Shown piece after piece: positions 7,454-47,534 of a DNA stretch of 49,803 nt; position 1 is the first letter of the stretch; the number at the start of each line of letters is the position of its first letter. This DNA is from an uncultured Muribaculaceae bacterium (GTDB lineage: Bacteria; Bacillota_I; Bacilli_A; RF39; UBA660), in NCBI GenBank assembly GCA_964372145.1, contig CAYJPM010000001.1:4104-53906 (forward strand), written 5' to 3'. The notes beneath the pieces were generated by a model. The model was not told the DNA's origin and made no database searches. It saw only the letters and a program-made list of their open reading frames with translations. Made by a program: the position numbers and the translations under genes.

Positions 7454-7506
7454 ATTACCCTCCATATTGTTTGTATAATTATTATACCATTATTTAAACA
7501 AAAAAG

Positions 7507-10207: not shown

Positions 10208-10208
10208 A

Positions 10209-10508
10209 TTATTCTCCTTCGATTACTTTAATATTCCCATTTACATAAGACAACCCATATTCATCTGCTATCGATTGAATATTTTGTAAACTAGCAAGTT
10301 CATTAAGTTGCATTGATAAACTTTCATTTAAACTAAGTTGAACATCAATTTTACTTTCTAAATCTTCAACCTTAATATTAGTTTCAGATAATAGAGCATT
10401 TGTAAAAACATCAATTACAGGTATAGCAACCACTAACAAAGCTAAAAGAACATACATAAACTTTTCTCCTTTTAACATTTTATATCTTTTTGTTTTTACT
10501 TTTTTCAT
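10209..10508 (-). CDS. ftsL: Cell-division protein FtsL
   Basis: 99 aa with a basic N-terminus, a single TM segment and a coiled-coil tail. Conserved position between rsmH and pbpB. Confidence 0.7.
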   Translation of the reverse strand: MKKVKTKRYKMLKGEKFMYVLLALLVVAIPVIDVFTNALLSETNIKVEDLESKIDVQLSLNESLSMQLNELASLQNIQSIADEYGLSYVNGNIKVIEGE

Positions 10509-10510
10509 AA

Positions 10511-11422
10511 TTATATCCTTTCGATAACTCTAAGTTTAGCACTATTACTTCTACTATTTTCCTCTAATTCAATTTGGGAAGGTAAAAGAGGATTTTTATT
10601 AACTAACTTAATAAGCGGTTTATACTCATCAGGTATAACAGGTAACCCTCTAACCATACTATTTATTTCACTATATTTTCTAAATATAGTCTTAACAACT
10701 CTATCTTCAAGTGAATGAAATGATATTACACATATTCTTCCACCAGGTTTAAGAATACTAATTGCATCAGGAAGTACACTTTCTAATACTTTTAATTCTT
10801 CATTAACTTCTATTCTTATAGCTTGAAATATTTTTCTTTCAGGATGATTCTTATAAAAATAATTAGCACCAGTAGCACTTTTAATTACTTCTACTAACTC
10901 CATTGTTGTATTAATATTTTCTTTATTACTTAATATTTTTTTAGCAATAACTCTAGATAACTTTTCTTCACCATATCTAAAAAATACTTCAACTAATTTT
11001 TCTTCACTATAATTCACGATAATATCTTTAGCGCTCATACCTTCATTAGACATTCTCATATCAAGTGGTCCATCATTCATAAATGAAAAACCTCTTTCAG
11101 GATTATCTATCTGAGGTGATGAAAAACCTAAATCAAAGATTATTCCATCTACTAAATCTATATTTTCTTCATGAAGCTTTTCTTTCATTACTTCAAAATT
11201 ACTTTTGATAATTTTAAAATTATTACTTATTTTTGATAACTTATCAGTTGAATATTTAATAGCTTCTTCATCTTGATCAAAACAATATAAATAACCATCT
11301 TCTAACTTAGATAAAACTTCACTACTATGCCCAGCATACCCTACAGTAGCATCAACATATATTCCATCTTTCTTAATATTTAAATTATCAATAACTTCAT
11401 TTTTTAAAACACTATAATGCAT
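10511..11422 (-). CDS. rsmH: 16S rRNA (cytosine1402-N4)-methyltransferase RsmH (MraW)
   Basis: MHYSVLKNEVI...YVDATVGYAGHS...DLGFSSPQID...ISFHSLEDR motifs. The probable start is the MHYSVL ATG at 11422; the ORF-track start at 11476 would overlap mraZ by 65 nt. Confidence 0.9.
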   Translation of the reverse strand: MHYSVLKNEVIDNLNIKKDGIYVDATVGYAGHSSEVLSKLEDGYLYCFDQDEEAIKYSTDKLSKISNNFKIIKSNFEVMKEKLHEENIDLVDGIIFDLGFSSPQIDNPERGFSFMNDGPLDMRMSNEGMSAKDIIVNYSEEKLVEVFFRYGEEKLSRVIAKKILSNKENINTTMELVEVIKSATGANYFYKNHPERKIFQAIRIEVNEELKVLESVLPDAISILKPGGRICVISFHSLEDRVVKTIFRKYSEINSMVRGLPVIPDEYKPLIKLVNKNPLLPSQIELEENSRSNSAKLRVIERI

Positions 11423-11849
11423 CTTCCACCTCAAATAAATGTTCAGCGATATCTTCCATAGCGTCCGCATTATCATTCATAAAATTTTCATAACTATCTT
11501 TAGCCCATATTTCTAATCTTTCACCAACACCTATTATTACACATGCCTTTTCTAAAGAAGCATAAGTAGCTTGAGTATCAGTTAAAACTATACGGCCAGA
11601 TTTATCAAAACTACAGTCATTAGCACCCGCAAAAAAAGTTCTTGTAAATGTTCTTGCATCTTTTTTTGTAAAAGGAAGAGTATTTATTTTACTTGTTAAT
11701 TTATTCCATTCATCTAATGAATATACATATAAACATTTTTCTAAACCTTTAGTAACAATAAAATCATTACCTAGTTTATCACGATATTTAGCTGGAATAA
11801 TAAGTCTTTTCTTTTCATCGATATTATGATGAAACTCTCCAATGAACAT
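11412..11849 (-). CDS. mraZ: Transcriptional regulator MraZ
   Basis: 145 aa starting MFIGEFHHNIDEKKRLIIPAKYR, with a second SpoVT/AbrB-like repeat (DKSGRIVL). First gene of the dcw cluster, with its operator immediately upstream. Confidence 0.9.
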   Translation of the reverse strand: MFIGEFHHNIDEKKRLIIPAKYRDKLGNDFIVTKGLEKCLYVYSLDEWNKLTSKINTLPFTKKDARTFTRTFFAGANDCSFDKSGRIVLTDTQATYASLEKACVIIGVGERLEIWAKDSYENFMNDNADAMEDIAEHLFEVEDAL

Positions 11850-11855
11850 TTAACT

Positions 11856-11882
11856 CCCCACTTTCCCCCACGGAATACCACT
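11856..11882 (-). promoter_or_regulatory. MraZ operator: three direct GTGG(G/T) repeats at exact 10-bp spacing
   Basis: The minus strand reads CAGTGGTATTCCGTGGGGGAAAGTGGGGAGTTAAATG. CAC triplets sit on the plus strand at 11859-61, 11869-71 and 11879-81. The last repeat overlaps the mraZ SD. Confidence 0.7.
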
Positions 11883-11902
11883 GTATGATATTATTCTAAT
11901 AT

Positions 11903-11939
11903 AAAACAAAAAAAAAGTAAATATAATATATTTACTTTT
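11903..11939 (-). terminator. Rho-independent terminator downstream of rpmF
   Basis: Perfect 12-bp stem AAAAGTAAATAT / ATATTTACTTTT (11913-11924 / 11928-11939) with a 3-nt loop, followed on the minus strand by a T-run. Confidence 0.7.
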
Positions 11940-11980
11940 CTTAATTAATAATAATACTTTACACTACTTTACAATAAAAA

Positions 11981-12172
11981 TTAATTAGTAGTTTCTTCAG
12001 TTACTTTAATAACTTCTTTACCATTGTAATTACCACACTTAGTACATGCTCTGTGAGGTCTTAAATTAGCACCACATTTGCTGCATGTAGTTATAGCACC
12101 TGCTTCTTTTTTTAAATGTGTTCTTCTCATTGCTTTTTTAGTTTTACTTGTTCTTCTAAATGGAACTGCCAT
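11981..12172 (-). CDS. rpmF: 50S ribosomal protein L32
   Basis: MAVPFRRTSKTKK... with a CxxC...CxxC zinc ribbon (CSKCG...CTKCG). Confidence 0.95.
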   Translation of the reverse strand: MAVPFRRTSKTKKAMRRTHLKKEAGAITTCSKCGANLRPHRACTKCGNYNGKEVIKVTEETTN

Positions 12173-12174
12173 TT

Positions 12175-12630
12175 TTATTCACCACCTTTAAATAGTTCTT
12201 GAAGTTTCTCTAGCCTAGGATCAATACTCTTTTCATCTAAAGAATCCTCAGTTAATATTTTCCATCCATTACCTTCTTTTTCTTCTAATTTTTTATTAGA
12301 TACACGAATGGGTACTTCCAGTACAATATTTTCCCACAAAATCTCATTAATATCAAGTATATTTTCATAATTTTCTAAAATTTCTTCAATATTTACATTA
12401 ATTTCATATAATACATCACTTAAATCAACTGCATCTTCAAGAATTAACTCAGCAATTAATTTACCAGTAATCTTAATTTCATCAGTAATTTCATAATATA
12501 TTTTTCCATCAAAATGAATATTGTTAATTTTTTTAATACCCACTTTTGCATAATCAACTTCATCAAATACAAAATTATCATTAATATTTATTTCTCTTTT
12601 AACATTTAATTCAGTTATATTTATTTTCAT
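12175..12630 (-). CDS. YceD/YlbN (DUF177) family protein
   Basis: Acidic 151-aa ORF immediately upstream of rpmF, which is the conserved gene pair. GGAG SD. Confidence 0.75.
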   Translation of the reverse strand: MKINITELNVKREININDNFVFDEVDYAKVGIKKINNIHFDGKIYYEITDEIKITGKLIAELILEDAVDLSDVLYEINVNIEEILENYENILDINEILWENIVLEVPIRVSNKKLEEKEGNGWKILTEDSLDEKSIDPRLEKLQELFKGGE

Positions 12631-12686
12631 AATAAACTCCTAACTAATAAAAATATAACACATTTTGTTATATTTTTAAAGTATTT

Positions 12687-13943
12687 CTATAAAGGACCTG
12701 TTATTCTAGCATAACCATTTCCGATATGACCTGTACCTAATCCATATAATTCACCACTTGGATTTGGCATCTGCACTTGTTCACCTTTAACATTTGTTCT
12801 AACAAAACCATTTCCATCAATCATTGTAGTATTAAAAAATATATAATCACTATAATGATATGAACAAGAAACATCAGATGTAGTATAAAGACATCCAGTT
12901 TTAGGTGATGAATCAACATCGGATATAACAGAAACACCACCAAGATGTCCTGATATATAAGATGATCCACCTCCACCTCCACCACTACTAGTAGGTGTTA
13001 CATGAGTACCGCCTCCGCCGCCATAATAGCCGCCTCCGCCTCCACCACAAATAGCAATTGCCGCTGAGCCTCCTACACCAAATGTACCACTAGTAACAGT
13101 AGTTGAATGCGTTCCACCAACACCAAAAGATCCACCAGAAGTAACAGTTGCATTATATCCATATAAACTAGCCTTAGACAAACCATCATTCATTCCACCA
13201 GCAGAACCTCTGTTAGAAATACCTCCTCCTCCTCCGCCCCCGGCGACCATTATTCTTGAATTTAACGAATTAATTTCTAATCTAACATCAGTAGCTCCAC
13301 CTCCGCCTGATGATCTTTGATCACTAGATGAACCTTTACCTCCACCATTATAAGCACCAACTGGAACCCAACCTCCATTAGTATTATTTCCATCAATTCC
13401 TTTACCACCAACATATATATATATAACACTATCTGCAGTTAATTCCACTGTACCGATAGTATAAGCACCATATCCCCCATATCCTAAGTATGAAAGAGCT
13501 AAAGTATTACCACCTTGAGCACCCCATAATTCTATTTTATATTTACCGTCTGCAGGAACAATAAATTCCTGATAACTTCCGGTATAACTAAAAACAACTT
13601 CATCAGGTTCTTTTATATCAAAATATACATAACATTTATCAGAACCACTAGTATCTAAATTCATTAGTCTATTATCATTATCCCAAGTTAAAACAGATTC
13701 ATTTATACAATAACTTTTTTCTGAATTATAAATATAAGATTTATCAGGAAAAGTAGAAATATCACTTTCTAAATAATTATCACCTGATACTTGAAGCATA
13801 ATAGAAAATACAGATTCATCTATCTCTTCGTTTGTAGTTTTATTTATATTTTGCACATAACTAAAATATACTAAAAACATAGCGCCTATTAAAAAAACAA
13901 AACTAAATATATATATGCATCTTTTCATTCTTAAACCTTTCAC
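12687..13943 (-). CDS. Glycine-rich-domain surface protein, paralog G6 (short form: TM anchor + one 2-Cys module + Gly-rich domain)
   Basis: Motif series FSYTGSYQEFIVPADGKYKIELWGAQGG, VIYIYVGGKG, GGGGATDVRL, SRIMVAGGGGGGG, GGGGGGYYGGGGG, GGSSYISGH, GTGHIGNGYARITGPL. The ORF-track start is a GTG; an ATG at 13928 has an AAAGG SD. Confidence 0.8.
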   Translation of the reverse strand: MKGLRMKRCIYIFSFVFLIGAMFLVYFSYVQNINKTTNEEIDESVFSIMLQVSGDNYLESDISTFPDKSYIYNSEKSYCINESVLTWDNDNRLMNLDTSGSDKCYVYFDIKEPDEVVFSYTGSYQEFIVPADGKYKIELWGAQGGNTLALSYLGYGGYGAYTIGTVELTADSVIYIYVGGKGIDGNNTNGGWVPVGAYNGGGKGSSSDQRSSGGGGATDVRLEINSLNSRIMVAGGGGGGGISNRGSAGGMNDGLSKASLYGYNATVTSGGSFGVGGTHSTTVTSGTFGVGGSAAIAICGGGGGGYYGGGGGTHVTPTSSGGGGGGSSYISGHLGGVSVISDVDSSPKTGCLYTTSDVSCSYHYSDYIFFNTTMIDGNGFVRTNVKGEQVQMPNPSGELYGLGTGHIGNGYARITGPL

Positions 13944-13964
13944 TAGTTATAAATATAATAAATT

Positions 13965-15251
13965 TTATAGAGGACCGCTTATTCTAGCATAACCATTACC
14001 AGAATGACCAGTACCTAAATCATATAATTCACCACTTGGATTTGGCATCTGCACTTGTTCACCTTTAACATTAGTCCAATTATAACCTGCTCCATCTATC
14101 ATAACAGTATTTGTAAATATACTATTAGAATAGTGAATGGAACAATCATTATCAGTAGTTCCAGTTGTACATCCAGTTTTTGGAGTTCGATCCGAATCAG
14201 ATGTTATAGCTACTGCTCCAGTATGTCCAGAGATATATGAAGAACCCGATGTTCCACTTGCATAATTAATTGAAGTAGTTCCAACAGTTACAGCTTGTCC
14301 GCCATAATATCCACCACCTGATCCACCAGAGTTTACATCACCACTAATATTAATTGCTACTGAAGGAGAACCATATCCAAATGCAAACCCACTTATTTGA
14401 GTAGGTGTAACAGATCCAGTATAAGCATATGCATATCCTATTAAACCACCACCATGATTTCCACCGGTATCATAATAAGGATGATTAATAGCATGGCCAG
14501 AACCTCCACCACCTGCAGCAACTAAAATTCTAGAATTTAATCCTGTCGTATCATTCCATGGACCAGACACCAATCTAAAATCGGTTGCACCACCACCTGG
14601 AAAACCTGACTCACCATCTACAGCAGTATTATCTACATCATACTTACCTGCGCCTCCACCATTAAATGCTGAAAGATAAGAAGCAGAAGTTGTTAAATTA
14701 GCAGAAGTAATATTCGATTTATTTTCACCGACATATATATATACAACATCATTTGCAAGAAGATCAATTTCACCCGAAACATAACTTCCTGATCCTCCAT
14801 ATAAAATATCACTTGAAACATAAAAATTAGAAGTACCACTCGCTCCCCAAGCTTCAAACTTATATAATCCATCACTTGGAACAACAAATTCTTGATAATC
14901 ACCCGTATATGCAAACTCATATAAAACAGCTTCTAATTTATCAAAATATAAATAGCAATTATCAGCTCCATCTGATTGAACAGTTATTGTTTTATTAATA
15001 TCATCCCATGTAATAGGAGAACCAAAAACACAATAACTTTCAACATCATTCAGAACATAACCACTTTGTGGAAAATCAGTTACATCACTTTTAACATATT
15101 CACCAGATTCATCTTCCAACATTATTGATAACATAGACATATCAACATCTTCAATATTTTTATCATAATTATTGTAATATACAAAAGTTATAAAACTAAA
15201 TATAAAAATAGTTAATACAACAAATACTACAATATTTCTTTTATTTTTCAT
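13965..15251 (-). CDS. Glycine-rich-domain surface protein, paralog G5 (short form)
   Basis: TM anchor, then the module SYCVFGSPITWDD...DNCYLYFD, then FAYTGDYQEFVVPSDGLYKFEAWGASG, VVYIYVGEN, GGGATDFRL, SRILVAAGGGGSG, GGSGGGYYGG, GSSYISGH and a C-terminal GTGHSGNGYARISGPL. Confidence 0.8.
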   Translation of the reverse strand: MKNKRNIVVFVVLTIFIFSFITFVYYNNYDKNIEDVDMSMLSIMLEDESGEYVKSDVTDFPQSGYVLNDVESYCVFGSPITWDDINKTITVQSDGADNCYLYFDKLEAVLYEFAYTGDYQEFVVPSDGLYKFEAWGASGTSNFYVSSDILYGGSGSYVSGEIDLLANDVVYIYVGENKSNITSANLTTSASYLSAFNGGGAGKYDVDNTAVDGESGFPGGGATDFRLVSGPWNDTTGLNSRILVAAGGGGSGHAINHPYYDTGGNHGGGLIGYAYAYTGSVTPTQISGFAFGYGSPSVAINISGDVNSGGSGGGYYGGQAVTVGTTSINYASGTSGSSYISGHTGAVAITSDSDRTPKTGCTTGTTDNDCSIHYSNSIFTNTVMIDGAGYNWTNVKGEQVQMPNPSGELYDLGTGHSGNGYARISGPL

Positions 15252-15307
15252 TTACATTAACAACCTTTCATTAGTCATAAATTTAATTTATATTTATGAC
15301 AACAATT

Positions 15308-16918
15308 CTATAGGGGACCCGTAATTTTAGCATGTCCGTTTCCAGTATGCATCACACCTAATTCATAAAACCCGCCAAGCGGATTAGGTATTGGAACTTG
15401 TTCACCTTTTACATTTGTCCAATTGTATCCAGCTCCATCTATCATAACAGTGTTAGTAAAAACATACCCTGAATAATGATATGAGCAGTTGATATTAGTA
15501 GTTCCAGTTGTACAACCTGATTTTGGAGCTTGATTAGAACTTGATGTTATAGCCACTGCTCCCATATGCCCAGAAATATATGATGAACCACCTGCGCCTG
15601 AACCAACTACATGTGCATTATTTGATGCTCCACCACCACCGTAGTAGCCGCCGCCGCCGCCGCTACCCCAAATTCCATTTACATTTCCACCTATACCAAA
15701 AGTACCACTATATCCAGTTAAAGCTCCTACTCCGCCTGTACCACCGGAAGTTTGGGTTCCACCTGTAGCCACTGTATACGGCGAACTATAAGGATTACTT
15801 TGATAATATCCACCGTTATACCCAATCAGACCTCCTGCTTGAGTACCAGTTAACCCCCCGGTACCGCCACCACCACCAGAAACCATAATTCTCGATCTTA
15901 AAGATGCAGTATTATTCCAAGTACCTTTAACAGTTCTTATATCGGTTGCTCCACCGCCACCGGTCCAAACAAAAACACCAGTATCGTCTGTAGCATAACC
16001 AGAAAGACCACCACCATTATAACCACCAGAATTTGGATCATATAAATAAGTTGTATTGTACCCACGTTCTCCAACATATATATATAACGTTTCATCTTGG
16101 TTCAACTCTATATACCCCATAGTATAAGCCCCTTTATACGCTCCCCATAATTCTATTTTATATACACCACTGTCTACAACAGTAAACTCTTGATAATCAC
16201 CAGTATAAACGTAATCATATTGCACAGCATTTACTATATCAAAATATGCTCTACACTCTGTTTTTCCTACTGCACTTGTTGTAAGTTTATTATTTATTTC
16301 ATCATATGTTATAAACGAATCACCTGTACATGTCGATTTTTCAATAATAAATTTATATTCTAAATTAATTATTGAATTTATAGTATAATCAGGAACCTCT
16401 TCATATTCACAAGTGCCACTTTTACAAGTTTCACCTATTTCTTTTAATACTGTTATTTTAATATCAGAATCTACAGTTAAATCAGCAGCATCGTAATAAA
16501 ATTCACAACGAGTTTTACCAGGTGAACTAACATCAAATGTATCATCAGAATTTCGTATAAATGTTGCTCCATTAGTACAAAATGTCTTTTCTGGTATATA
16601 AATATATTCTTTTTCTGGAGCATTCCAATATGCAGTGTACGCACCTGTACCTATACCATTTTCATCTCTATCCTCTACCATATATTTAATATTCAAATGA
16701 GGTGAAGAAAAAGATTCAACAGAACCTGTGAATAAATTACGACTTATTATATCACTGAAATACGCATAAGAAATATAAATTCCTATAGATACAATTCCAC
16801 ATATAATAAACATTATTAAAACAAAATTTTTATTATTTTTTACGTATGACAAAAACTTAAGATTAAAAATCTTAAGTTTATCTCTAAGTTGATGAAATAA
16901 TTTTTTAAAATATTTCAT
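15308..16918 (-). CDS. Glycine-rich-domain surface protein, paralog G4 (long form: shared 227-aa N-module + Gly-rich domain)
   Basis: The N-module ends ...KTECRAYFD and contains the AYFSD signal-peptide motif. It is followed by YVYTGDYQEFTVVDSGVYKIELWGA, LYIYVGERG, GGGGATDIRT, SRIMVSGGGGGTG, GSGGGGGYYGGGG, GGSSYISGH and HTGNGHAKITGPL. GGTGG SD before the ATG. Confidence 0.85.
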   Translation of the reverse strand: MKYFKKLFHQLRDKLKIFNLKFLSYVKNNKNFVLIMFIICGIVSIGIYISYAYFSDIISRNLFTGSVESFSSPHLNIKYMVEDRDENGIGTGAYTAYWNAPEKEYIYIPEKTFCTNGATFIRNSDDTFDVSSPGKTRCEFYYDAADLTVDSDIKITVLKEIGETCKSGTCEYEEVPDYTINSIINLEYKFIIEKSTCTGDSFITYDEINNKLTTSAVGKTECRAYFDIVNAVQYDYVYTGDYQEFTVVDSGVYKIELWGAYKGAYTMGYIELNQDETLYIYVGERGYNTTYLYDPNSGGYNGGGLSGYATDDTGVFVWTGGGGATDIRTVKGTWNNTASLRSRIMVSGGGGGTGGLTGTQAGGLIGYNGGYYQSNPYSSPYTVATGGTQTSGGTGGVGALTGYSGTFGIGGNVNGIWGSGGGGGYYGGGGASNNAHVVGSGAGGSSYISGHMGAVAITSSSNQAPKSGCTTGTTNINCSYHYSGYVFTNTVMIDGAGYNWTNVKGEQVPIPNPLGGFYELGVMHTGNGHAKITGPL

Positions 16919-16996
16919 ACTATAATTCCACCTATTTTAATTTTATATATAAATTATATATTTGTCAATAATTTAATTAACAGTTACATATATATA
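16238..16996 (-). repeat. Copy 3 of ~760-nt direct repeat (681-nt 5' coding module of G4 + SD + promoter + relic of pmbA 3' end)
   Basis: Alignable by eye at roughly 85-90% nt identity with 17983-18739 and 21276-22033. In all three copies the coding part is exactly 681 nt and ends at the GAT of ...CRAYFD. Confidence 0.8.
16940..16968 (-). promoter_or_regulatory. Sigma-A-type promoter of G4 (TTGACA-17 nt-TAAAAT)
   Basis: -35 TTGACA = plus 16963-16968. -10 TAAAAT = plus 16940-16945. GGTGG SD at 16928-16932 and ATG at 16916-16918. Confidence 0.55.
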
Positions 16997-17058
16997 TTTA
17001 TTTTTTATCTTTTTAACTGAAAAAATATTATAGTAGCAAATTCAATTACATTATCGTT

Positions 17059-18663
17059 TTATAACTCTAATCTAAATGGATCAGATACAGTACCAGAGCC
17101 ATCTTGATAATTCACATAATAATCTAAATAAAAAACAGGTCTAACTGCAAAACCTCTGTAAGCAGAATCATAACTAGGGTATCCAACATAACCTTTATTA
17201 ACAGCACCATATAAACCAGGAGTAAAAATAGCTGCCGAATTACTAGTATCAGCATTAATGGTACAATCACCAGAATTACCATAATCTCCTACATTATTCA
17301 TATAAAGCCAACTAGATTTATACACAGTTGTATTTTGTGAAAAACTGTTACTTATAGTTCCAGAATCATTATAATATCCCCAATATATTTGATTAGAAGC
17401 ATAAAAATAATCACTTATATTCATCAATGCAACATTATATTTTTGTTTTGAAACTGTAGCTATTTCATAATTGTAAAAACTTTTAGCAACATTAGTACTT
17501 TTCTCTGTAATTAAACCTATATTATAATGCATTGGTTCAATCATACTTCTATAATTTTCATTAAATGAATTATAATAAGTTGTATTTAAATAAATATTAA
17601 CATCCGCATCATCTGTAGTTATTGACGTATTTGTACCCTCCCATTTATTACTATGACCTGAATCATATAAAAAATGATCAGTATGATTGTACTGTGTTTC
17701 ATATGGATTATAACTAACATTATATATACCATCTTTATTTTTATCTACAGGATGGGCTTTAATTAATTTTACATAACCATCATATATACCTACAACTCTA
17801 AACAAATTTTCTTTAGGACATGAACTTGCATCGCTACCAAAACATACCCAATTATTAGGGTTATTTCCACTAAAACGATAATTATTATCACCTGCACTAG
17901 TAGTAATATCAGATGTATGTTGAATTAAGCCAGCAGACTCATCATAATTTTCTAATATATATTCAGAAAAGGGATCTACATTATCAAAATATGCTCTACA
18001 TTCTGTTTTACCAATCGCACTAGTAACAAGTTGCTTATTTATTTCATCAAATGTTATAGATGAACCACCTGTGCATGTTGATTTTTCAATAATAAATTTA
18101 AATTCTGAATTTAAGAGAGCAGCTATAGTATAATCCGGAACAACTTCATATTCACAAGTTCCACTTTTACAAGATTCATCTTTTTCCTTTAATACTGTTA
18201 TTTTAATATCAGCATCTGTAGTTAAATCAGCAGCATCATAATAAAATTCACATCTAGTTTTACCAGGTGAACTTACGTCAAATGTATCATCAGAATTTCT
18301 CAGAAAAGTTGCTCCATTGGTACAAAAAGACATTTCAGGTATATAAATATAATCCTTTTCTGGAGCATTCCAATATGCAGTATACGTACCTATACCTACG
18401 CCACTCTCATCTCTATCTTCAACCATGTATTTTATATTTAAATGAGGTGAAGAAAATGATTCAACAGAACCTGTGAATAAATTGCGACTTATTATATCAC
18501 TAAAATATGCATATGAAATATAAATACCAATCGATAAAATTCCACATATAATAAGCACAATTAAAACAAAATTTTTATTATTTTTTATGTATGACAAAAA
18601 CTTAAGATTAAAAATCTTAAGTTTATCTCTAAGTTGATGAAATAATTTTTCAAAACATTTCAT
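17059..18663 (-). CDS. Surface protein paralog G3: shared 227-aa N-module fused to a different, non-glycine-rich C-terminal domain
   Basis: About 85% aa identity to G4 and G1 by eye up to ...KTECRAYFD, then an unrelated 307-aa tail (NNYRFSGNNPNNWVCFG...LFRVVGIYDGYVKLIK...AVRPVFYLD). The ORF-track GTG at 18675 lies inside the AGGTGG SD; the ATG is at 18663. Confidence 0.8.
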   Translation of the reverse strand: MKCFEKLFHQLRDKLKIFNLKFLSYIKNNKNFVLIVLIICGILSIGIYISYAYFSDIISRNLFTGSVESFSSPHLNIKYMVEDRDESGVGIGTYTAYWNAPEKDYIYIPEMSFCTNGATFLRNSDDTFDVSSPGKTRCEFYYDAADLTTDADIKITVLKEKDESCKSGTCEYEVVPDYTIAALLNSEFKFIIEKSTCTGGSSITFDEINKQLVTSAIGKTECRAYFDNVDPFSEYILENYDESAGLIQHTSDITTSAGDNNYRFSGNNPNNWVCFGSDASSCPKENLFRVVGIYDGYVKLIKAHPVDKNKDGIYNVSYNPYETQYNHTDHFLYDSGHSNKWEGTNTSITTDDADVNIYLNTTYYNSFNENYRSMIEPMHYNIGLITEKSTNVAKSFYNYEIATVSKQKYNVALMNISDYFYASNQIYWGYYNDSGTISNSFSQNTTVYKSSWLYMNNVGDYGNSGDCTINADTSNSAAIFTPGLYGAVNKGYVGYPSYDSAYRGFAVRPVFYLDYYVNYQDGSGTVSDPFRLEL

Positions 18664-18739
18664 ACTATATTCCACCTATTATAATTTTATATATATATTA
18701 TATATTTGTCAATAATTTGATTAATGATTATACATATAT
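17983..18739 (-). repeat. Copy 2 of ~760-nt direct repeat (5' module of G3 + promoter region)
   Basis: Same reasoning as copy 3. The upstream part CATACTATATTCCACCTATTATAATTTTATATATA...TTGTCAATAATTTGATTAA is shared. Confidence 0.8.
18684..18712 (-). promoter_or_regulatory. Sigma-A-type promoter of G3 (TTGACA-17 nt-TAAAAT)
   Basis: -35 at 18707-18712 and -10 at 18684-18689, with AGGTGG SD at 18672-18677. Geometry is identical to the G4 and G1 copies. Confidence 0.55.
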
Positions 18740-18785
18740 TTATATTAAACAATAATTAAAAAATACAGTAATAATTTGTCAATTA

Positions 18786-20357
18786 CTAATATAAATAAGG
18801 ACCTGTAATTACAGCAACACCATTACCTGAATGACCTACTCCCAACGCATAATATTCATTGTTATATGTCGGCATTTGCACTTGTTCACCTTTTTCTGTT
18901 GTCCAATTATATCCAACACCATCAATCATAAGAGTATCAGTAAAATACTTACCTGAATAATGTATACTGTTTTGTACATCAGAATTACCCGCTACAACAC
19001 CCACATTTAAATTTAACCCATTAGACATTTCATAATATGTTCCATCAGTTAAATAATTATGTAAATATGCACTTTTACTTTTATTATTATTATATACTTT
19101 AACATATGTTTCATAATAACTTCTATTATCACCATAATAACGCCAAACTGTTATATTTTTTAAATTATATTCTGCACCTAAATCAAGTGTTGTGATTTTT
19201 CCCAATTGTGCATAATTACTAATATTATTATCAACTACTGCAGGAAAAGAATTTGTGTATCCATTCGAAGTAACTGATTTATTTAATGCTACATTAGTTC
19301 CATTTGTATCAAATGCTTTAATTTCATTAATATGATTTGCAGCATTTACAGAATTGTTATTTGAACCTACTTCAATATATCTAATATCAAAATCTAAATC
19401 ATTAGGAGATAAATCATCAGCTGATGTAATAGCAATTGAACCTGCATGTCCTGATATAAAAGATGAGCCTCCACTTGAACCTGTAGCACAAGATCCGCCG
19501 CCGCCGCCATAATATCCACCGCCGCCTGCACAACCACCACTTGCAAAACCAAAACCAGAAACTGAATATCCACTTGAAAACCTTTGGCCTGGAAATGTTT
19601 GAGTACCACCAGTTGTTCCACCAGTAGCTGTAGCTATCAATCCACCACCAGCTCCTTTAGTCGTAGTATTATTACCTACACCAGAACCTGAACCTGCAGC
19701 TACCATTATTCTAGAAGCAAGTGAAGCAGCATTATTCCAAGTGCCAGAAACCAATCTAAAATCAGTTGCCCCGCCACCAGGATAACCACCACTATTACCA
19801 GTACCACCATTAAACGAAGTGCTTCCAGTAGTCACATTATTACCTTCACCTACATAAACATATATAACTTCGTCTTTTTCTAAATAAATTTTTCCACTAG
19901 TATATGCCCCTTTACTCTTAGAATTACCACCTTGAGCACCCCAAGCTTCTAACATATATACACCACTTGTTGGAACAACAAATTCTTGATAATTATCAGT
20001 AAAACTAAAAACATACTCATCTGGATCATGAATGTCAAAAAAAACATAACATTTATCAGAACCTGTTGTATCCAAATTAATTAATCTATCAATTTCATTC
20101 CATGTCATAGAAGATCCATTTATACAATAACTTTTTTCAATATTATAATCATAACCTAATCCAGGAAAAGTGGATATATCACTTTCGATATAATTATTAT
20201 CAGTTACTTCGATCATTATTGAAAAAATTGATGAATCATCAACATTTTTTTCTGCACCGTATTTCTTATTATATGAAAAAAATAATATTATTGTCGTAAT
20301 TAAAATAATTACAATTAATACTAATATAATTATCGTTTTTTTGTTTTTAATATTCAT
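18786..20357 (-). CDS. Glycine-rich-domain surface protein, paralog G2 (short form with ~140-aa discoidin/F5-8-type-C-like insertion)
   Basis: FSFTDNYQEFVVPTSGVYMLEAWGAQGG, VIYVYVGEG, GGGATDFRL, SRIMVAAGSGSG, GGGGYYGGGGG and GGSSFISGH. An insert then follows (IRYIEVGSNNNS...HINEIKAFD...LDLGAEYNLKNITVWRYY...), and the protein ends GVGHSGNGVAVITGPYLY. Confidence 0.8.
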   Translation of the reverse strand: MNIKNKKTIIILVLIVIILITTIILFFSYNKKYGAEKNVDDSSIFSIMIEVTDNNYIESDISTFPGLGYDYNIEKSYCINGSSMTWNEIDRLINLDTTGSDKCYVFFDIHDPDEYVFSFTDNYQEFVVPTSGVYMLEAWGAQGGNSKSKGAYTSGKIYLEKDEVIYVYVGEGNNVTTGSTSFNGGTGNSGGYPGGGATDFRLVSGTWNNAASLASRIMVAAGSGSGVGNNTTTKGAGGGLIATATGGTTGGTQTFPGQRFSSGYSVSGFGFASGGCAGGGGYYGGGGGSCATGSSGGSSFISGHAGSIAITSADDLSPNDLDFDIRYIEVGSNNNSVNAANHINEIKAFDTNGTNVALNKSVTSNGYTNSFPAVVDNNISNYAQLGKITTLDLGAEYNLKNITVWRYYGDNRSYYETYVKVYNNNKSKSAYLHNYLTDGTYYEMSNGLNLNVGVVAGNSDVQNSIHYSGKYFTDTLMIDGVGYNWTTEKGEQVQMPTYNNEYYALGVGHSGNGVAVITGPYLY

Positions 20358-20378
20358 ATTTCTAATTCCTATTCTTTT

Positions 20379-21956
20379 TTAAAATAATGCTGTTATCTTT
20401 AAATAACCATCACCAGTATGACCTACACCTAAATTATATAATGTACCATCCGGTTTAGGCATTTGGATTCTACTCCCTCTGACATTTGTCCAACTATATC
20501 CTGCTCCATCTATCATTACAGTATCTGTAAATGTGTACCCAGAGTAATGATATGAGCAATTAATATTAGAAGTGCCAGTTGTACAACCAGTTTTTGGTGT
20601 TCGATCACTTGAAGAAGTAATTGCCACACATCCAGTGTGACCAGAAATATATGAAGAACCACCTGCAGAAGGAAATGACCCTAAATTTAGTTTAGAACCT
20701 CCTGCACCACCATAATAACCCGCACCACCGCTTGAGGATCCAACAACATCTCCGCCTCCACCAGATCCACCTATTCCAAATCCACCTGGAGTACCACCAA
20801 TATAACTAGAAGGATAATTAGTTACCGTTCCACCACTAACTTGTGTACCCCCAGTTGAAGCATAAGCTGAATAATAAACGTTATAAGAAGTAACCGCAGT
20901 CAATCCACCAGCATACCCACCAACCTCATCATTAATATAATCATTTTGCCCACCTGCACTAGCAACAATAAATCTCGACTCTAAATTATTATCTAATCTA
21001 ATGTCAGTCGCACCTCCACCAGAACCAACATCCACAGTATATGAAACACCGCCATTATTAAATGTAGATGTTTTTCCTACACCTGATTCACCTACATAAA
21101 CATATAAAATATCTCCTCTAGAAAAATTAGTAACACCTGAAACATACCCACCATATGAATAACTTGTTCCACCGCTAGCTCCCCAAGCTTCTACTTTATA
21201 AGCACCAGTTACCTGTATAATAATTTTTTGATAATTACCTGTATATTGAAATTCATAATTGGTATTGCTTATATAATCAAAATATGCTCTACATTCAGTT
21301 TTACCAACAGCGTTTGTTACTAATTTATTTTCAACATAATTGAAACTTATATTTGAATCACCTTCACACGATGAGTTTTCTGCTATGAATTTATATCCAT
21401 TATTAATTAAACTTTCAATAGTATAATCAGATGCATCCTCATATTCACAAGTTCCACTTTTACAAGTTTCACCTTTTTCTTTTAACACTACTATTTTTAC
21501 ATCAGAATCCGTAGTTAAATCAATAGCATCATAATAAAATTCACATCTAGTTTTACCAGGTGAACTAACATCAAATGTATCATCAGAATTTCTCACAAAA
21601 GTGGCTCCATTAGTACAAAATGATTTCTCTGATATATAAACATAATCTTTTTCTGGTGCATTCCAAAATGCAGTATATGTACCTGTACCTACGCCATTCT
21701 CATCTCTATCTTCCACCATATATTTAATATTTAAATGAGGTGAAGAAAAAGATTCAACAGAACCAGCAAATAAATTACGATTTATAATATCACTGAAATA
21801 AGCATAAGAAATATAAATACCAATCGATAAAATCCCACATATAATAAACATAATTAAAACAAAATTTTTATTAGTTTTCATATATGACAAAAACTTAAGA
21901 TTAAAAACCTTAAGTTTATCTCTAAGTTGATGAAATAATTTTTTTAAATATTTCAT
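20379..21956 (-). CDS. Glycine-rich-domain surface protein, paralog G1 (long form, first gene of array)
   Basis: Shared N-module with AYFSD, then FQYTGNYQKIIIQVTGAYKVEAWGASGG, ILYVYVGESG, GGGATDIRL, SRFIVASAGG, GGAGYYGGAGG, GGSSYISGH and GVGHTGDGYLKITALF. The ATG at 21956 follows an AGGTGG SD; the ORF-track GTG at 21968 lies in the SD. Confidence 0.85.
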   Translation of the reverse strand: MKYLKKLFHQLRDKLKVFNLKFLSYMKTNKNFVLIMFIICGILSIGIYISYAYFSDIINRNLFAGSVESFSSPHLNIKYMVEDRDENGVGTGTYTAFWNAPEKDYVYISEKSFCTNGATFVRNSDDTFDVSSPGKTRCEFYYDAIDLTTDSDVKIVVLKEKGETCKSGTCEYEDASDYTIESLINNGYKFIAENSSCEGDSNISFNYVENKLVTNAVGKTECRAYFDYISNTNYEFQYTGNYQKIIIQVTGAYKVEAWGASGGTSYSYGGYVSGVTNFSRGDILYVYVGESGVGKTSTFNNGGVSYTVDVGSGGGATDIRLDNNLESRFIVASAGGQNDYINDEVGGYAGGLTAVTSYNVYYSAYASTGGTQVSGGTVTNYPSSYIGGTPGGFGIGGSGGGGDVVGSSSGGAGYYGGAGGSKLNLGSFPSAGGSSYISGHTGCVAITSSSDRTPKTGCTTGTSNINCSYHYSGYTFTDTVMIDGAGYSWTNVRGSRIQMPKPDGTLYNLGVGHTGDGYLKITALF

Positions 21957-22033
21957 ACTATATTCCACCTATTATAATTTTATATATAATTTAAATAATT
22001 GTCAATAATTTAAGCAACAGTTACATATATATT
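21276..22033 (-). repeat. Copy 1 of ~760-nt direct repeat (5' module of G1 + promoter; upstream end is the genuine 3' end of pmbA)
   Basis: Same reasoning as copy 3. Here the segment ...AATAATTTAAGCAACAGTTACATATATAT contains the real pmbA stop codon (22010-22012). Confidence 0.8.
21977..22005 (-). promoter_or_regulatory. Sigma-A-type promoter of G1 (TTGACA-17 nt-TAAAAT), 4 nt downstream of pmbA stop
   Basis: -35 at 22000-22005 and -10 at 21977-21982. Confidence 0.55.
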
Positions 22034-23254
22034 TTGTAATAACAACGAAGGATTTATCATTTTACTATTATAGCAGTGTAATTCATTTTCAATTGCAATT
22101 ACATTATTTAACATTTTAAATAAATTAGTAGATAATATAATTAATTCAACACTTCTTTTCTTACCATTTTGAATTATATAACCTCTTGCTTGAAGAGATA
22201 TATCACCAGATTTAACACTTATACCACTATGCATTCCTTCTACATTAGTAATAACAATACCATCATTTAACATATTTTCTAATTCATCAAAAGATTTATT
22301 TCCAGGTTCTATATATAAATTTCTTACACCAAAACTATTACCAGTAGATTTTACATTATCTAATTTAGCAGTTGCATTATCATATAATTTACTAATGAAT
22401 TTTCCTTTTTCTACTATAACTTTTCTAAAAGTTTTAGTTCCTTCACTATCAAATAATCTACTTCCATATAATTTATCATCTGAAGGATCTTCTATAAATG
22501 TAATTTTATCACTAAAAACAACTTCATTAAACTTACTACTTAAAGGAGATAATAAGTCTTTAATATTTCTAGCATCAAACATACCACTAAACTGATTTAG
22601 TATTTTACTTACTACTTCAGCAGTTAATAAAACATTATATTCACCAGATTTTATAGTTACACTATTATATCTTAAATAAATTGATTCAATACATTCAACT
22701 ACTTTTTCATAAACACTATCTAAATCTAAATATATATCTACAATATTTAAAAAATCATCATATACTTTATCATTATTTTTAACGACAATTTCAAAAGAAA
22801 AATTATAATTTGTTTTCTTATCAATAGATTTAACATTGTTATTTTCAATACTAATATCAGAATCAGTTCTATTATAATATCCATTAATAGTATATATATC
22901 TTTATATTTATTTTTTAAAGTATATAATGATTTTAAAAACTTGATAATTTCGTCATTATTATCTTCACTAAGTAATTTTCTATCAGAAGCAATCGATTCC
23001 ATAGCAAATGATCCATCATCATCATTATCAATAATTTCTGATTTAGAAATTAAAATATCTAACAATTTTTGTTCATCATCAATATTTTCAGTTACAAGTG
23101 TGACATACTTATCATTAAATTTACCTTTTAATTTATAATAAGTTATATTAGATATATCTAATTGTTTTAACTCATCATTAAATACATTAATAGAAGTTTC
23201 AATATTATGATTTTTATAAATTTCAACACCATTTTTGATTAATATATTATTCAT
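22010..23254 (-). CDS. pmbA: PmbA/TldE-family protein (non-catalytic partner of TldD)
   Basis: 414 aa with a TldD/PmbA-type C-terminal region (GNSFGVRNLYIEPG..., GMHSGISVKSGDISL) and no HExxxH. ATGA-type 8-nt overlap with tldD and GGGAGG SD. Confidence 0.8.
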   Translation of the reverse strand: MNNILIKNGVEIYKNHNIETSINVFNDELKQLDISNITYYKLKGKFNDKYVTLVTENIDDEQKLLDILISKSEIIDNDDDGSFAMESIASDRKLLSEDNNDEIIKFLKSLYTLKNKYKDIYTINGYYNRTDSDISIENNNVKSIDKKTNYNFSFEIVVKNNDKVYDDFLNIVDIYLDLDSVYEKVVECIESIYLRYNSVTIKSGEYNVLLTAEVVSKILNQFSGMFDARNIKDLLSPLSSKFNEVVFSDKITFIEDPSDDKLYGSRLFDSEGTKTFRKVIVEKGKFISKLYDNATAKLDNVKSTGNSFGVRNLYIEPGNKSFDELENMLNDGIVITNVEGMHSGISVKSGDISLQARGYIIQNGKKRSVELIILSTNLFKMLNNVIAIENELHCYNSKMINPSLLLQNIYVTVA

Positions 23255-24602
23255 TTGAACCTCCCACTAATATTTTAGAAACTTTAATTGTCGGTTGACC
23301 TAATGTAACTGGAACATTACCACTTTCAGCTCCACAATAACCAGTACTAAAATCTAAATCATCACTTACCATTTCTACATTTGAAAGTATATCTAAAGCA
23401 GATCCTATTAAAGATACATTTTTAATTGGTTTATCTATTTTTCCATCTTTAATTATATAACCAAAAGTTACATTAAAATTAAATTCACCTGTATTAGGAG
23501 AAACACTACCTCCACCTAATTTTTTAGCATATATACCATAATCAATAGACTTAATCATATCTTCTACTTTATCATTACCTATTTCTAAATATGTATTATT
23601 CATTCTAGATATAGCTTTATTTTTGTAACTTTCTCTTCTGGCTGAACCAGTAGAACTTGAATTTAAAGTTACAGCATCTATATTATCTGTTAAATATTCT
23701 TTTAAGATTCCATTTTTAATTAAAACATTATTCTTAGTTTTAGTACCTTGATCATCAAATATTGATGTTCCAAATAAATTACCTTTAGTACCATCATCTA
23801 TAATAGTAACTTTATCACTCGCTATTTTCTTATTCAACATATCAGTTAAAACAGAAGTTTTATTGGCTATAGAATATGATTCCATCGCATGTCCACATGC
23901 TTCATGAAATATAACTGCTCCATCATTACTAATAACAACGGGTACTTTCCCACCTTCGAAAGATACACAATCAAATTTTTCAATAGTTTCTTTGCACGTT
24001 TGTTCCAATTTTTTCATTAAAACTTTAGTATCTAAAAATGAATAATCATCTCCATATCCAATTATTAAACTAGAATTTACCACTTTATTATTCTCTTCTG
24101 CAAATACTGTTACAATTACTCTTGTTCGTAATCTTTTCTCTACATTAAATTTATTATTAGATAAAATTTTTACATTTTGCTCATTTTCATTAAATCTAAT
24201 AATAACTTGATTTATTCTTTTATCAAAATTTCTAGAATATTCATTTATCTCATTCATAATCATCTTTTTTTCTTCATCAGATAATCCATTTTGAGATTTA
24301 TTACTTTCTATTACATTATCAACAAGTACATCATCTTCATATTCTCTAACATTAAAATTTTCACATAATTTACCAATAATATTATCTACATCAGCAAAAT
24401 TATTTGTACTACCATAATAACTTTTTTCTTTATCATTTAAAGTTATACCAACACCATTTATTATTTCAATCATTATATCTTCTAATTTATTATTTAAGTA
24501 ATAATAATTTTTATTAGTAGTTTCTTCATAAAATAATTCACAGTATGATGCATCATACTTTTTTAATTTATTATAATATATTTTTAATTCACTATTTTTC
24601 AT
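23247..24602 (-). CDS. tldD: TldD-family metalloprotease
   Basis: HEACGHAMES (HExxxH) motif, GSARRESY and the TldD-like C-terminus GYCGAESGNVPV. The ATG at 24602 has an AAGGA SD; the ORF-track start is at 24617. Confidence 0.85.
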   Translation of the reverse strand: MKNSELKIYYNKLKKYDASYCELFYEETTNKNYYYLNNKLEDIMIEIINGVGITLNDKEKSYYGSTNNFADVDNIIGKLCENFNVREYEDDVLVDNVIESNKSQNGLSDEEKKMIMNEINEYSRNFDKRINQVIIRFNENEQNVKILSNNKFNVEKRLRTRVIVTVFAEENNKVVNSSLIIGYGDDYSFLDTKVLMKKLEQTCKETIEKFDCVSFEGGKVPVVISNDGAVIFHEACGHAMESYSIANKTSVLTDMLNKKIASDKVTIIDDGTKGNLFGTSIFDDQGTKTKNNVLIKNGILKEYLTDNIDAVTLNSSSTGSARRESYKNKAISRMNNTYLEIGNDKVEDMIKSIDYGIYAKKLGGGSVSPNTGEFNFNVTFGYIIKDGKIDKPIKNVSLIGSALDILSNVEMVSDDLDFSTGYCGAESGNVPVTLGQPTIKVSKILVGGSNE

Positions 24603-24655
24603 ATATATTCCTTTCATTATAAATAGTATATTATATTTAAAATAAAAAGAAAAGA

Positions 24656-25213
24656 TTAATAATTCTTTTCTTTATAATATTCGTATAACTCATGAAATCT
24701 ATTAAAATGTACAACTTCCCTTTGTCTTAAAAATAAAAGTGGATTAATTATACTTTCATCATCAGTAAGCTCAATTAAGTTTTCATATGTAACTCTAGCT
24801 TTTTGTTCTGCTGCCATATCTTCGACTAAATCAGCAATCGGATCACCAGTCACAGCAAAATAAGCCGCTGTAAAAGGTACTCCTGATGAATCTATAGGAA
24901 AGACACCTTTTCTATGTTCAGTATAATATCCATCTAATCCAGCATCTTTTAATTCTTCTTTTGTAGCATCCTTTAATAATTGATATATCATAGTACTAAT
25001 CATTTCAACATGACCAAGTTCTTCAGTAGCAATATCATTTAAAAGTGCTTTTCCTATATCATCTGGCATAGTATATTTTTGTGAAAAATATCTAATTGAT
25101 GCGCCAAGTTCACCATTAGCTCCACCTAACTGAGTAATTAAATATTTAGCCATCCTTAAATCCTTTTTCTTAATATCAACTGGAAAAGGCAATAATTTAG
25201 TATATTTATACAT
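24656..25213 (-). CDS. cotJC: Spore coat protein CotJC (manganese-catalase/ferritin-like)
   Basis: MYKYTKLLPFPVDIKKKDLRMAKYLITQLGGANGELGASIRYFSQKYTMP and EELGHVEM motifs. GGAGG SD 9 nt before the ATG at 25213. Confidence 0.85.
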   Translation of the reverse strand: MYKYTKLLPFPVDIKKKDLRMAKYLITQLGGANGELGASIRYFSQKYTMPDDIGKALLNDIATEELGHVEMISTMIYQLLKDATKEELKDAGLDGYYTEHRKGVFPIDSSGVPFTAAYFAVTGDPIADLVEDMAAEQKARVTYENLIELTDDESIINPLLFLRQREVVHFNRFHELYEYYKEKNY

Positions 25214-25634
25214 ATATTGAATCCTCCTTTTCCCAAGGCCAATTTTTAACCCATAAATTTTTATCAAAAATATTATCAGTTATCTTTATTGGACCATATT
25301 CTTTTACATAATCATTTTCTAAAATACATAATTTCTCAATAGCAATTTTTAAACATTCAAAAACTTTTTTATCATTAGGATGTATATCAAGCCATAAATT
25401 TAAATCATTAATTACAAATTCTAATTCCATTATTTTATAAAGTTTTGCAGTTTTTTCACACGTAGTTTTTGGCATACATGGTCTATAATTTTTATAAGGT
25501 TTATATTCATTTTCAAACATATTCCCTTTAATAAAACCTTCAGTTGGTTCATAAAGTTTTACCTTTATTTTTTTCTCTTCTTCATTATCAATATTAATTA
25601 CTGATAAAAAAGTTAAATCATTATCAAATAACAT
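25206..25634 (-). CDS. cotJB: CotJB-domain protein with CotJA-like N-terminal extension (apparent CotJA-CotJB fusion)
   Basis: The C-terminal half (LYKIMELEFVINDLNLWLDIHPNDKKVFE...YVKEYGPI) is CotJB-like. The N-terminal half (EGFIKGNMFENEYKPYKNY) resembles the CotJA GT-x-F-P-x-L-x-x-P-Y motif. GGGAGG SD, and the ORF overlaps cotJC. Confidence 0.6.
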   Translation of the reverse strand: MLFDNDLTFLSVINIDNEEEKKIKVKLYEPTEGFIKGNMFENEYKPYKNYRPCMPKTTCEKTAKLYKIMELEFVINDLNLWLDIHPNDKKVFECLKIAIEKLCILENDYVKEYGPIKITDNIFDKNLWVKNWPWEKEDSIYV

Positions 25635-44344: not shown

Positions 44345-44418
44345 ATCTCCTTTTTAATATAATACTATTTATAGAAAAAAAATACAATAAAAAAATAAGA
44401 TAACTAATAATAGCCATC

Positions 44419-44838: not shown

Positions 44839-44887
44839 ATTTTACACTCCTTATTTTCATTATATAGTATTCACGATATATTTTCAA

Positions 44888-47127: not shown

Positions 47128-47156
47128 CAAAAAAAAAGACTATTAAATTAGTCTTT
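47125..47156 (-). terminator. Rho-independent terminator of the 110-aa gene/lepB unit
   Basis: 8-bp stem AAAGACTA / TAGTCTTT (47135-47142 / 47149-47156) with a 6-nt loop and a T-run on the minus strand. Confidence 0.6.
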
Positions 47157-47480: not shown

Positions 47481-47534
47481 AATTACCTCCTATTTCTAAA
47501 TATATATTATCACACATATTTAATTATTACAATA

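Follow-up and report, generated by a model that had tools for sequence, protein, structure and literature searches.

Six consecutive minus-strand genes, here called G1 to G6, lie at positions 12687-21968 of a 49,803-nucleotide stretch of DNA from an uncultured bacterium (GenBank assembly GCA_964372145.1, contig CAYJPM010000001.1; the whole stretch is referred to below as the window). Five of the six encode proteins ending in a head of about 300 residues that hidden Markov model (HMM), profile match and predicted fold all assign to the ALK/LTK TNF-like plus glycine-rich family, while G4 ends in a domain that appears distantly related to DUF6273. In each protein the head follows a hydrophobic anchor segment and a stalk of one or two small modules, each with a conserved Cys pair. 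An earlier note, made from the letters of this DNA alone, had proposed the ALK/LTK-type domain and the assignment stands, with Pfam matches at E 1e-31 to 1e-43, profile matches to solved structures and Foldseek matches at probability 1.0. The proteins are probably ligand-binding proteins of the cell surface with the N-terminus inside and the C-terminus outside the cell (N-in/C-out), in which anchor, stalk and head follow one another and which have diversified by the swapping of heads.

The glycine-rich head and its fold

The fixed series of motifs that had been read in five of the six proteins is seen in their alignment, with G4 as the exception. In keeping with this, the five proteins match the Pfam family PF12810 (ALK_LTK_GRD; gathering threshold 24.5 bits) with 150.3 bits for G1 (E 1.2e-43), 132.4 for G2 (E 3.5e-38), 132.2 for G3 (E 4e-38), 109.1 for G5 (E 4.5e-31) and 126.3 for G6 (E 2.6e-36). 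G4 had no PF12810 match, and a search of NCBIfam returned no match for the six proteins, the G3 N-terminus, the G4 head or an insert in the head of G5. A profile built from G1 and 37 homologues matched the PDB entries 7LRZ, 7MZY, 7NWZ, 7N00 and 7LS0 at E 6e-11 to 3e-10, followed by 7NX0 (E 1e-7) and 7LIR (E 4e-7), with the conserved blocks of the profile collinear with those of the solved ALK/LTK/SCD-2 ectodomains.

The AlphaFold2 model of G1, made from the 37-homologue alignment (mean pLDDT 88.4, pTM 0.80), has a helix at residues 3-33, six strands at residues 46-110 that make up the stalk module, and strands at residues 114-177 and 370-416 flanking a strand-poor region (residues 180-360) that is mostly of high confidence. 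When this model was compared with the PDB by Foldseek, the best 21 matches were all ALK, LTK or SCD-2 (E 1e-9 to 7e-7, probability 1.0), with modest TM-scores of 0.27-0.47 that are due in part to the presence of anchor and stalk in the query. The next matches were the tail tip of mycobacteriophage Bxb1 (5e-3) and the fibre of cyanophage Pam3 (0.11). Both kinds of comparison, HMM and Foldseek, therefore found significant similarity to the ALK/LTK TNFL-GlyR fold that the earlier note had recognised, and from this homology and fold match the glycine runs would be expected to adopt polyglycine-II (PGII) geometry.

Within the head, low-entropy blocks of glycine and beta structure alternate with high-entropy, indel-rich segments, at residues 143-158, 181-212, 241-300 and 311-320 of G1. 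The head of G1 has a conserved Cys pair (C351/C360), and the invariant non-glycine residues of the glycine-rich domain comprise T218, D219, R221, S229, R230, Q267, SSxISGH and HYS. The proteins end a few residues past the domain (...ITGPL in G1-G3) with no further Pfam domains. In G5 the Cys-loop segment of G1, G2, G3 and G6 is replaced in the alignment by an insert of 133 aa (residues 319-451; 19005-19403, minus strand), which may be an additional binding module. The insert gave no match in Pfam, NCBIfam or the PDB, and a conjectured identity as a discoidin/F5-8C domain was without Pfam or PDB support. Inserts of the same type recur in proteins of contig L002 and in protein P0125, from two other metagenome-assembled genomes (MAGs), in a jackhmmer run that drifted into the glycine-rich flanks.

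The glycine-rich domain is common, with 19,338 representative clusters matching PF12810 at E<=1e-3, 12,015 at E<=1e-10 and 4,024 at E<=1e-30. Its partners elsewhere include prepilin leaders (21/120 homologues), Flg_new and LamG. Among the library representatives P0253-P0392 and at L043 3443-13867, giant proteins of up to 7,775 aa contain up to 17 stretches of the domain, a Saprospiraceae protein of 3,474 aa has four glycine-rich domains, and many Firmicutes homologues of about 700 aa have two in tandem.

Phage relatives of the glycine-rich head

The relatedness to phage adhesins that the earlier note had raised is real and nearer than had been proposed. The G1 model matched 113 viral proteins in BFVD at E<=1e-3, the best being from gut siphoviruses at 32-34% identity, and the five glycine-rich proteins matched six PHROG families of unknown function, including 7388/5811/1589, with E down to 5e-35. 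At least 88 loci in IMG/VR encode relatives. The homologue on phage contig L080 is a protein of 312 aa consisting of the TNF-like/glycine-rich unit alone (PF12810 E 4e-40) and is 38% identical to G1 across the whole domain (E 2e-31). Its gene follows a large virion structural gene and a gene with a tape-measure-like match and immediately precedes holin and amidase genes, with two more virion structural genes after these. In siphoviruses infecting Gram-positive bacteria the gene that ends the structural block beside the lysis genes typically encodes the receptor-binding protein. A tblastn search of GenBank phages with the G1 head found none at E<=1e-5, for which low-complexity masking is a possible cause. 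In Pam3 the TNF-like plus glycine-rich unit has been shown experimentally to form the tail-fibre tip, with conserved glycine motifs and variable distal loops and with a resemblance to S16 gp38 and to C. elegans ALK (7LIR) (PMC9608196).

In many large gut-phage contigs (L086, 7965-8905, and sister IMG/VR loci) a frameshift in the variable central part divides the glycine-rich gene in two, the gene being intact in L080 (7965-8903). The split could be an assembly error, a pseudogene or programmed variation.

Such strong similarity to phage proteins would also be expected if the array were a phage or tailocin remnant, that is the tail-fibre genes of a degraded prophage with no cellular role. This is scarcely tenable and has been largely refuted: the flanks of the array are housekeeping genes, and no phage structural, lysis or integrase family was found among the window open reading frames (ORFs) scanned with Pfam, which were most of those of at least 70 aa. 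The Pfam-matched ORFs comprise the housekeeping set of a cell-walled low-GC bacterium (PBP, mraZ/rsmH/ftsL, a Mur ligase, FtsK, TypA and PFL), there are tRNAs, and a few of the ORFs scanned had no Pfam match. Moreover all six proteins are anchored at the N-terminus and have a stalk that is peculiar to a multigene family of cells, and their ORFs are intact and under purifying selection. The phage contigs with homologues have 38-44% GC compared with about 25% in the window, and as such would infect other hosts.

Membrane anchor and topology

Each of the six proteins has the basic N-terminal tail (net charge +3 to +8) and the one hydrophobic stretch (20-24 residues) that had been described in the earlier note, with no further hydrophobic segment, and in each the stretch after it is acidic or neutral. 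By the positive-inside rule a basic tail followed by a single hydrophobic stretch predicts an N-in/C-out topology, which would place the head outside the cell. The conserved Cys pairs in module and head, which may well form disulfides, fit this extracytoplasmic location. Inspection by eye showed neither a lipobox nor an LPXTG motif in the six proteins, and on this ground anchoring as lipoproteins or by sortase was rejected.

The hydrophobic segment would be a retained signal anchor in G1, G2 and G5, while in G3, G4 and G6 it ends I-S-Y-A-Y-F-S-D, which with its small residues fits the -3/-1 rule for signal peptidase, and may be cut after ...SYA. It is conceivable on this basis, though we regard it as unlikely, that the proteins are secreted matrix or fibre proteins, in which the segment of G3, G4 and G6 is a signal peptide cut after ...I-S-Y-A and the stalk and head are released or polymerised outside the cell. 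The motif [ST][FY]A[YF][FY] stands at the end of the segment in G3, G4 and G6 and in many homologues with otherwise unrelated stalks, recurring as [ST][FY]A[YF] in many glycine-rich-domain homologues of this kind, and the window encodes an S26 signal peptidase (47535-48194). The FSDIISRNLFTGSVESF after the motif, and ISYAYFSD...FTGS, are presumably similar to the N-terminus of TasA/camelysin (TasA/CalY SipW-type) proteins, with no support from HMMs: searches of NCBIfam and Pfam with the G3 N-terminus gave no SipW-signal or TasA/camelysin match even at E<=10. In addition the motif is not in G1, G2 or G5, the peptidase of the window is of the ordinary bacterial S26 type, and the 31-aa highly basic cytoplasmic tail is under purifying selection (dN/dS 0.14-0.26), such conservation being odd for a signal peptide that is discarded.

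Pilins likewise begin with a hydrophobic helix and contain beta domains held by disulfide bonds, and 21 of 120 close glycine-rich homologues have a canonical prepilin leader K-G-F-T-L-x-E (PF07963), with more having degenerate K-G-F-A forms. That the array encodes type IV pilin-like or pseudopilin tip adhesins, with the N-terminal helix a degenerate pilin helix, is nonetheless improbable, since none of the six proteins has the G-[FM]-[TS]-L-x-E motif (by regular expression) or a PF07963 match, no pilus assembly genes are among the window ORFs scanned, and the more than 80 stalk relatives described below are also without a prepilin motif.

The two-cysteine stalk family and the head of G4

The stalk modules are defined by the pattern C-x18-40-C-x2-[YF][YF]D. 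The earlier note had described one to three copies of a two-Cys module in each protein; the module is present, in one copy in G1, G2 and G5 and two in G3, G4 and G6, and three copies are found instead in a relative from another MAG. No relative of the module was found by profile among solved structures, and T4 Hoc, considered as a relative, was not significant (E 0.16).

With residues 1 to about 113 of G1 (anchor and module), a scan covering a single genome of each species found matches at many loci of gut MAGs that bear the labels uncultured Bacilli, Tenericutes or Erysipelotrichaceae, often 4-10 loci per MAG, which is a lower bound. The HMM built for the module found 81 ORFs in the matched gut-MAG loci besides the six of the array, most of which, by jackhmmer, carry a head of the G4 type rather than a glycine-rich one. 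A profile search extended this to 458 clusters (90% identity) with the architecture of stalk and G4-type head, all unnamed, some with inserted fn3 or Y_Y_Y modules. On these sequence comparisons the family is defined by its anchor and stalk rather than its head, with G4 a typical member and not the odd one out. As such the earlier framing of the family on a glycine-rich scaffold needs revision: the glycine-rich head is that of five of the six proteins here, and the stalk is the feature of the family as a whole.

Sequence comparison places the G4 head in a family distantly related to DUF6273 (PF19789). Fifteen of the 62 members of this G4-head family match DUF6273 at E<=0.01 (best E 5.5e-9), with the relatives P0160 (29.5 bits) and P0124 (24.8 bits) above the gathering threshold of 23.5 bits and P0123 (22.7 bits) just below it. 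A PDB profile search with the G4 head gave no match. DUF6273 has been described as a C-type-lectin-like domain of gut-phage receptor-binding proteins ('tentaclins', Mtd-like) that is often targeted by diversity-generating retroelements (DGRs) (PMC10743442; bioRxiv 10.1101/2024.10.15.618418). The 49.8-kb window has no reverse transcriptase-like ORF and no template repeat of the G4 head, and on the evidence of this window the reading as a DGR target was rejected.

Organisation and mosaic structure of the array

The three best promoter-like sites of the region are identical (TTGACA-17 nt-TAAAAT) and lie just upstream of G6, G4 and G3. About 75 nt upstream, including the ribosome-binding site (RBS) AGGTGG, and the first ~690 coding nt, which encode the tail, transmembrane (TM) segment and two modules, are 82-88% identical among G3, G4 and G6 by blastn. 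This cassette, delimited by blastn, promoter scan, alignment and repeat scan, is present on the minus strand at 16229-17002 for G3 (promoter-like site 16968-16940), 17974-18746 for G4 (18712-18684) and 21267-22039 for G6 (22005-21977). Intergenic gaps of 21, 56 and 21 nt join G5 to G6, and G2 and G1 to G3, and because the gaps are so short the array is read as three predicted transcription units, G6-G5, G4 and G3-G2-G1.

The unit G6-G5 is led by G6 (20379-21968), of 529 aa and long-type, with two modules and a glycine-rich head at residues 235-528 (nt 20385-21266). It is followed by G5 (18786-20357), of 523 aa and short-type, with TM segment at residues 8-29, one module at residues 45-109 and a glycine-rich head at residues 113-519 that includes the 133-aa insert. 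G4 (17059-18675; 538 aa, long-type) has the tail, TM segment and two-module stalk of the other long genes and a non-glycine-rich head at residues 233-538 (nt 17062-17979). The third unit is led by G3 (15308-16918; 536 aa, long-type), with its 31-aa basic tail, a TM segment ending ISYAYFS, modules at residues 76-144 and 153-228 and a glycine-rich head at residues 232-534 (nt 15317-16225). Downstream are the short-type genes G2 (13965-15251; 428 aa), with TM segment at residues 7-26, one module at residues 40-105 and a glycine-rich head at residues 110-425 (nt 13977-14924), and G1 (12687-13943; 418 aa), with TM segment at residues 9-30, one module at residues 46-110 and the TNF-like plus glycine-rich head at residues 114-416 (nt 12696-13604). 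The sizes of 418-538 aa given in the earlier note are correct for the ORFs as listed, but three of the genes probably start instead at an ATG codon preceded by an RBS, at 13928 (G1), 18663 (G4) and 21956 (G6), so that the proteins translated from these three genes are probably shorter. Database gene calls of 413 aa for G1, 534 aa for G4 and 525 aa for G6 agree with these starts.

Between G3 and G4 the homology ends right after the second module (...CRAYFD), with unrelated heads past this point. Other parts are common to other sets of genes, with G1 and G5 having in common the stalk and first part of the head (76% nt identity) and G2, G3 and G6 the last ~95 codons (75-76% nt identity). The presence of the same cassette at the head of each unit, together with homology ending at the junction of stalk and head, argues for duplication and head swapping. 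Values of dN/dS are 0.10-0.37 for the cassette, with 0.20-0.27 given for the 5′ part that the genes share, and 0.2-0.8 for the C-terminal block, indicating that all copies have been kept as proteins by purifying selection.

Inside the 5′ coding sequence of the cassette, at codons ~14-25, an inverted-repeat scan found a 12-bp palindrome, AAACTTAAGATT-TTT-AATCTTAAGTTT followed by TTGTC, at 16848-16884 (G3), 18593-18629 (G4) and 21886-21922 (G6), on the minus strand. As RNA it folds into a 12-bp hairpin (z -2.15), with the single difference in G6 retaining a G-U pair, and attenuation or the binding of a protein is a possible role. Besides this palindrome, tandem- and inverted-repeat scans found no phase-variation switch, and the spacers of the promoter-like sites are all 17 nt.

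An array of this kind is not as unusual as had been suggested, given how widespread the domain is and the presence of arrays in other MAGs. On L002, a contig binned as 'Muribaculaceae', a four-gene glycine-rich array (8210-15455) encodes proteins of 673, 544, 675 and 506 aa, in which the stalk is different but the N-terminal hydrophobic segment is again followed by the [ST][FY]A[YF] motif; two of the four genes have a G5-type insert. GCA_964368535.1 has a glycine-rich array of at least three genes in another genomic neighbourhood, with clear counterparts of the short and long gene types.

Proposed function

On the favoured account, the basic tail and single hydrophobic helix would insert each protein N-in/C-out, and one or two small all-beta modules, each with its conserved Cys pair, would form a stalk carrying a distal head either of the ALK/LTK-type TNF-like plus glycine-rich fold or of the distantly DUF6273-like type. 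The heads would bind a glycan or a protein, whether of host mucus, of other microbes or of the wall of the cell itself, and would owe their specificity to the variable loops, rich in indels, that separate the conserved runs of glycine, and the repertoire would have been diversified by duplication and recombinational head swapping. The heads are most likely ligand-binding because heads of both types serve as receptor-binding modules in gut phages, and this reading draws in all on what the domains are, the extracellular partners that accompany the glycine-rich domain elsewhere, the predicted topology and the swapping of heads on a conserved cassette. Proteins of this kind, if exposed as predicted, could act as variable adhesins or as a surface coat, as the earlier note had suggested.

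A number of observations weigh against this account. The invariant polar residues of the glycine-rich domain could reflect a function that is conserved and does not vary, for example catalysis or binding to the wall, and not variable recognition. The G4 head itself matches DUF6273 at 11.2 bits (E 0.34), below the 23.5-bit gathering threshold, and its AlphaFold2 model is poor (pLDDT 65.7) with no Foldseek match in the PDB at E<0.2. The receptor-binding role of the L080 homologue derives from where its gene lies and from the PHROG labels given to the genes nearby, the PHROG families of the homologue itself being of 'unknown function'. Lastly, with no sortase motif, lipobox or wall-binding domain seen, retention at the cell depends on an uncleaved TM helix.

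The use of both head types as receptor-binding modules by phages is also in keeping with a role in phage defence, in which the heads would cover the phage receptor of their own cell or serve as decoys, preventing adsorption, and a multi-copy recombining family fits an arms race. There was no match to any PADLOC defence model, the phage homologues infect hosts of different GC content and we know of no experimental precedent, such that receptor masking of this type is given little probability.

A more far-reaching and rather doubtful extension of the ligand-binding account is that reduced-genome gut Bacilli have built their main surface repertoire from two phage-type heads on one anchored stalk, with the cassette serving as a recombination platform on which heads are exchanged between paralogues and possibly with phages. 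If this were so, head exchange would vary the binding to other bacteria, host glycans or the cell's own phage receptors as a counterpart of phage host-range switching.

The domain is already catalogued, its proteins having the NCBI name 'glycine rich domain-containing protein', and no paper characterising a cellular bacterial PF12810 protein was found in the literature. The locus is neither rare nor mechanistically surprising and we infer its function; the two-Cys family of stalks, the combination of this stalk with phage-type heads of two kinds and the recurring promoter-leader cassette appear to be undescribed. The experimentally established role of the ALK/LTK glycine-rich fold is confined to animal cytokine receptors and a few phage receptor-binding tips, and among extracellular domains of microbes that have yet to be characterised it is one of the more common. 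The locus provides compact, monomeric-looking examples (413-536 aa) with a simple anchor, and beside them is a paralogue in which this stalk carries the other phage-type head, which argues for the head as a binding unit that can be exchanged. Finding the ligand of one head would give a first function for the bacterial branch and a handle on the attachment of uncultured gut Bacilli. Such a result would leave the understanding of ALK itself unchanged.

Relation to known systems

The glycine-rich heads share with the TG supradomain of ALK, LTK and SCD-2 (PF12810; 7LS0, 7N00, 7NWZ, 7NX0, 7LIR) the Pfam family, the order of blocks and the predicted fold, and in both cases the domain is membrane-tethered and extracellular, by prediction in the array. 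In contrast to the receptors, the domain in the array lies distally, at the C-terminus of a bacterial protein that is anchored by its other end, has its only hydrophobic segment at the N-terminus and has no EGF-like, kinase, MAM or LDLa domain. Bacterial and phage members also have invariant residues that human ALK does not have (ATD-R compared with ATYVF), and the ALKAL cytokine ligands do not exist in bacteria.

With the phage tips (Pam3 gp24, 7YFW; the PGII adhesin gp38 of T-even phages and S16; and the PF12810 proteins of gut phages such as L080) the array has in common a homologous domain, at 38% identity in the case of L080, Foldseek matches to the Pam3 fibre and Bxb1 tail tip, and the alternation of conserved glycine blocks with variable loops (PMC9608196). 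The phage proteins differ in having no membrane anchor or two-Cys stalk and in being set among virion structural and lysis genes, whereas the array is cellular, in a housekeeping neighbourhood and without a chaperone gene. The G4-head family resembles the DUF6273 (PF19789) heads of tentaclins and Mtd-like proteins in its 15/62 matches to that domain and in its plan, as tentaclins also combine Ig-like modules with a globular binding head (PMC10743442). Unlike these, the G4 head is C-terminal (the order being reversed) and below the Pfam threshold, and the protein is predicted to be membrane-anchored rather than capsid- or tail-borne; unlike DGR-targeted Mtd-like proteins, it lies in a window without a reverse transcriptase or template repeat.

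Among cellular systems, the vsp/vlp loci of Mycoplasma, as generally known, likewise consist of tandem paralogues with near-identical promoter, RBS and 5′ coding sequence and divergent distal parts in a low-GC, reduced-genome lineage. The array differs in having no lipobox, no homopolymeric or short-repeat switches, no invertible elements and no recombinase genes, as judged for the repeats by the repeat scans. MSCRAMM-type adhesins of Gram-positive bacteria are generally known to project a ligand-binding head off the membrane on a modular beta-sandwich stalk in a similar way, but the array proteins have no LPXTG/sortase signal, have their anchor at the N-terminus and have a stalk module without a relative among solved structures.

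Other features of the window

The placing of the array between tldD/pmbA on one side and yceD-rpmF on the other, as set out in the earlier note, agrees with the ORF listing, in which all six minus-strand ORFs are intact. Upstream of the array are a PmbA-like gene (22010-23254), which matches solved TldD/PmbA structures, and TldD (23247-24617; E 6e-60 to E. coli TldD), and downstream are YceD (12175-12630) and a 63-aa L32-like ORF (11981-12172). At 90% identity the six proteins form singleton clusters, as do TypA and the Mur ligase.

A CotJB/CotJC-like (Mn-catalase family) pair of spore-coat genes is present on the minus strand at 24656-25634 in this genome of about 25% GC, which hints that the lineage sporulates or did so recently. 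An 864-aa minus-strand ORF without a Pfam match (4871-7465) has a HEITH (HExxH) metalloprotease-like motif near its N-terminus, the rest being helix-rich and repetitive-looking. Three small minus-strand ORFs at 43838-45652 (168, 139 and 254 aa) have no significant Pfam match, the 254-aa ORF giving a far sub-threshold match only. The S26 signal peptidase gene is grouped on the minus strand (47148-49353) with an ORF of 110 aa that has no match and a gene for a VWA-domain protein (48283-49353).

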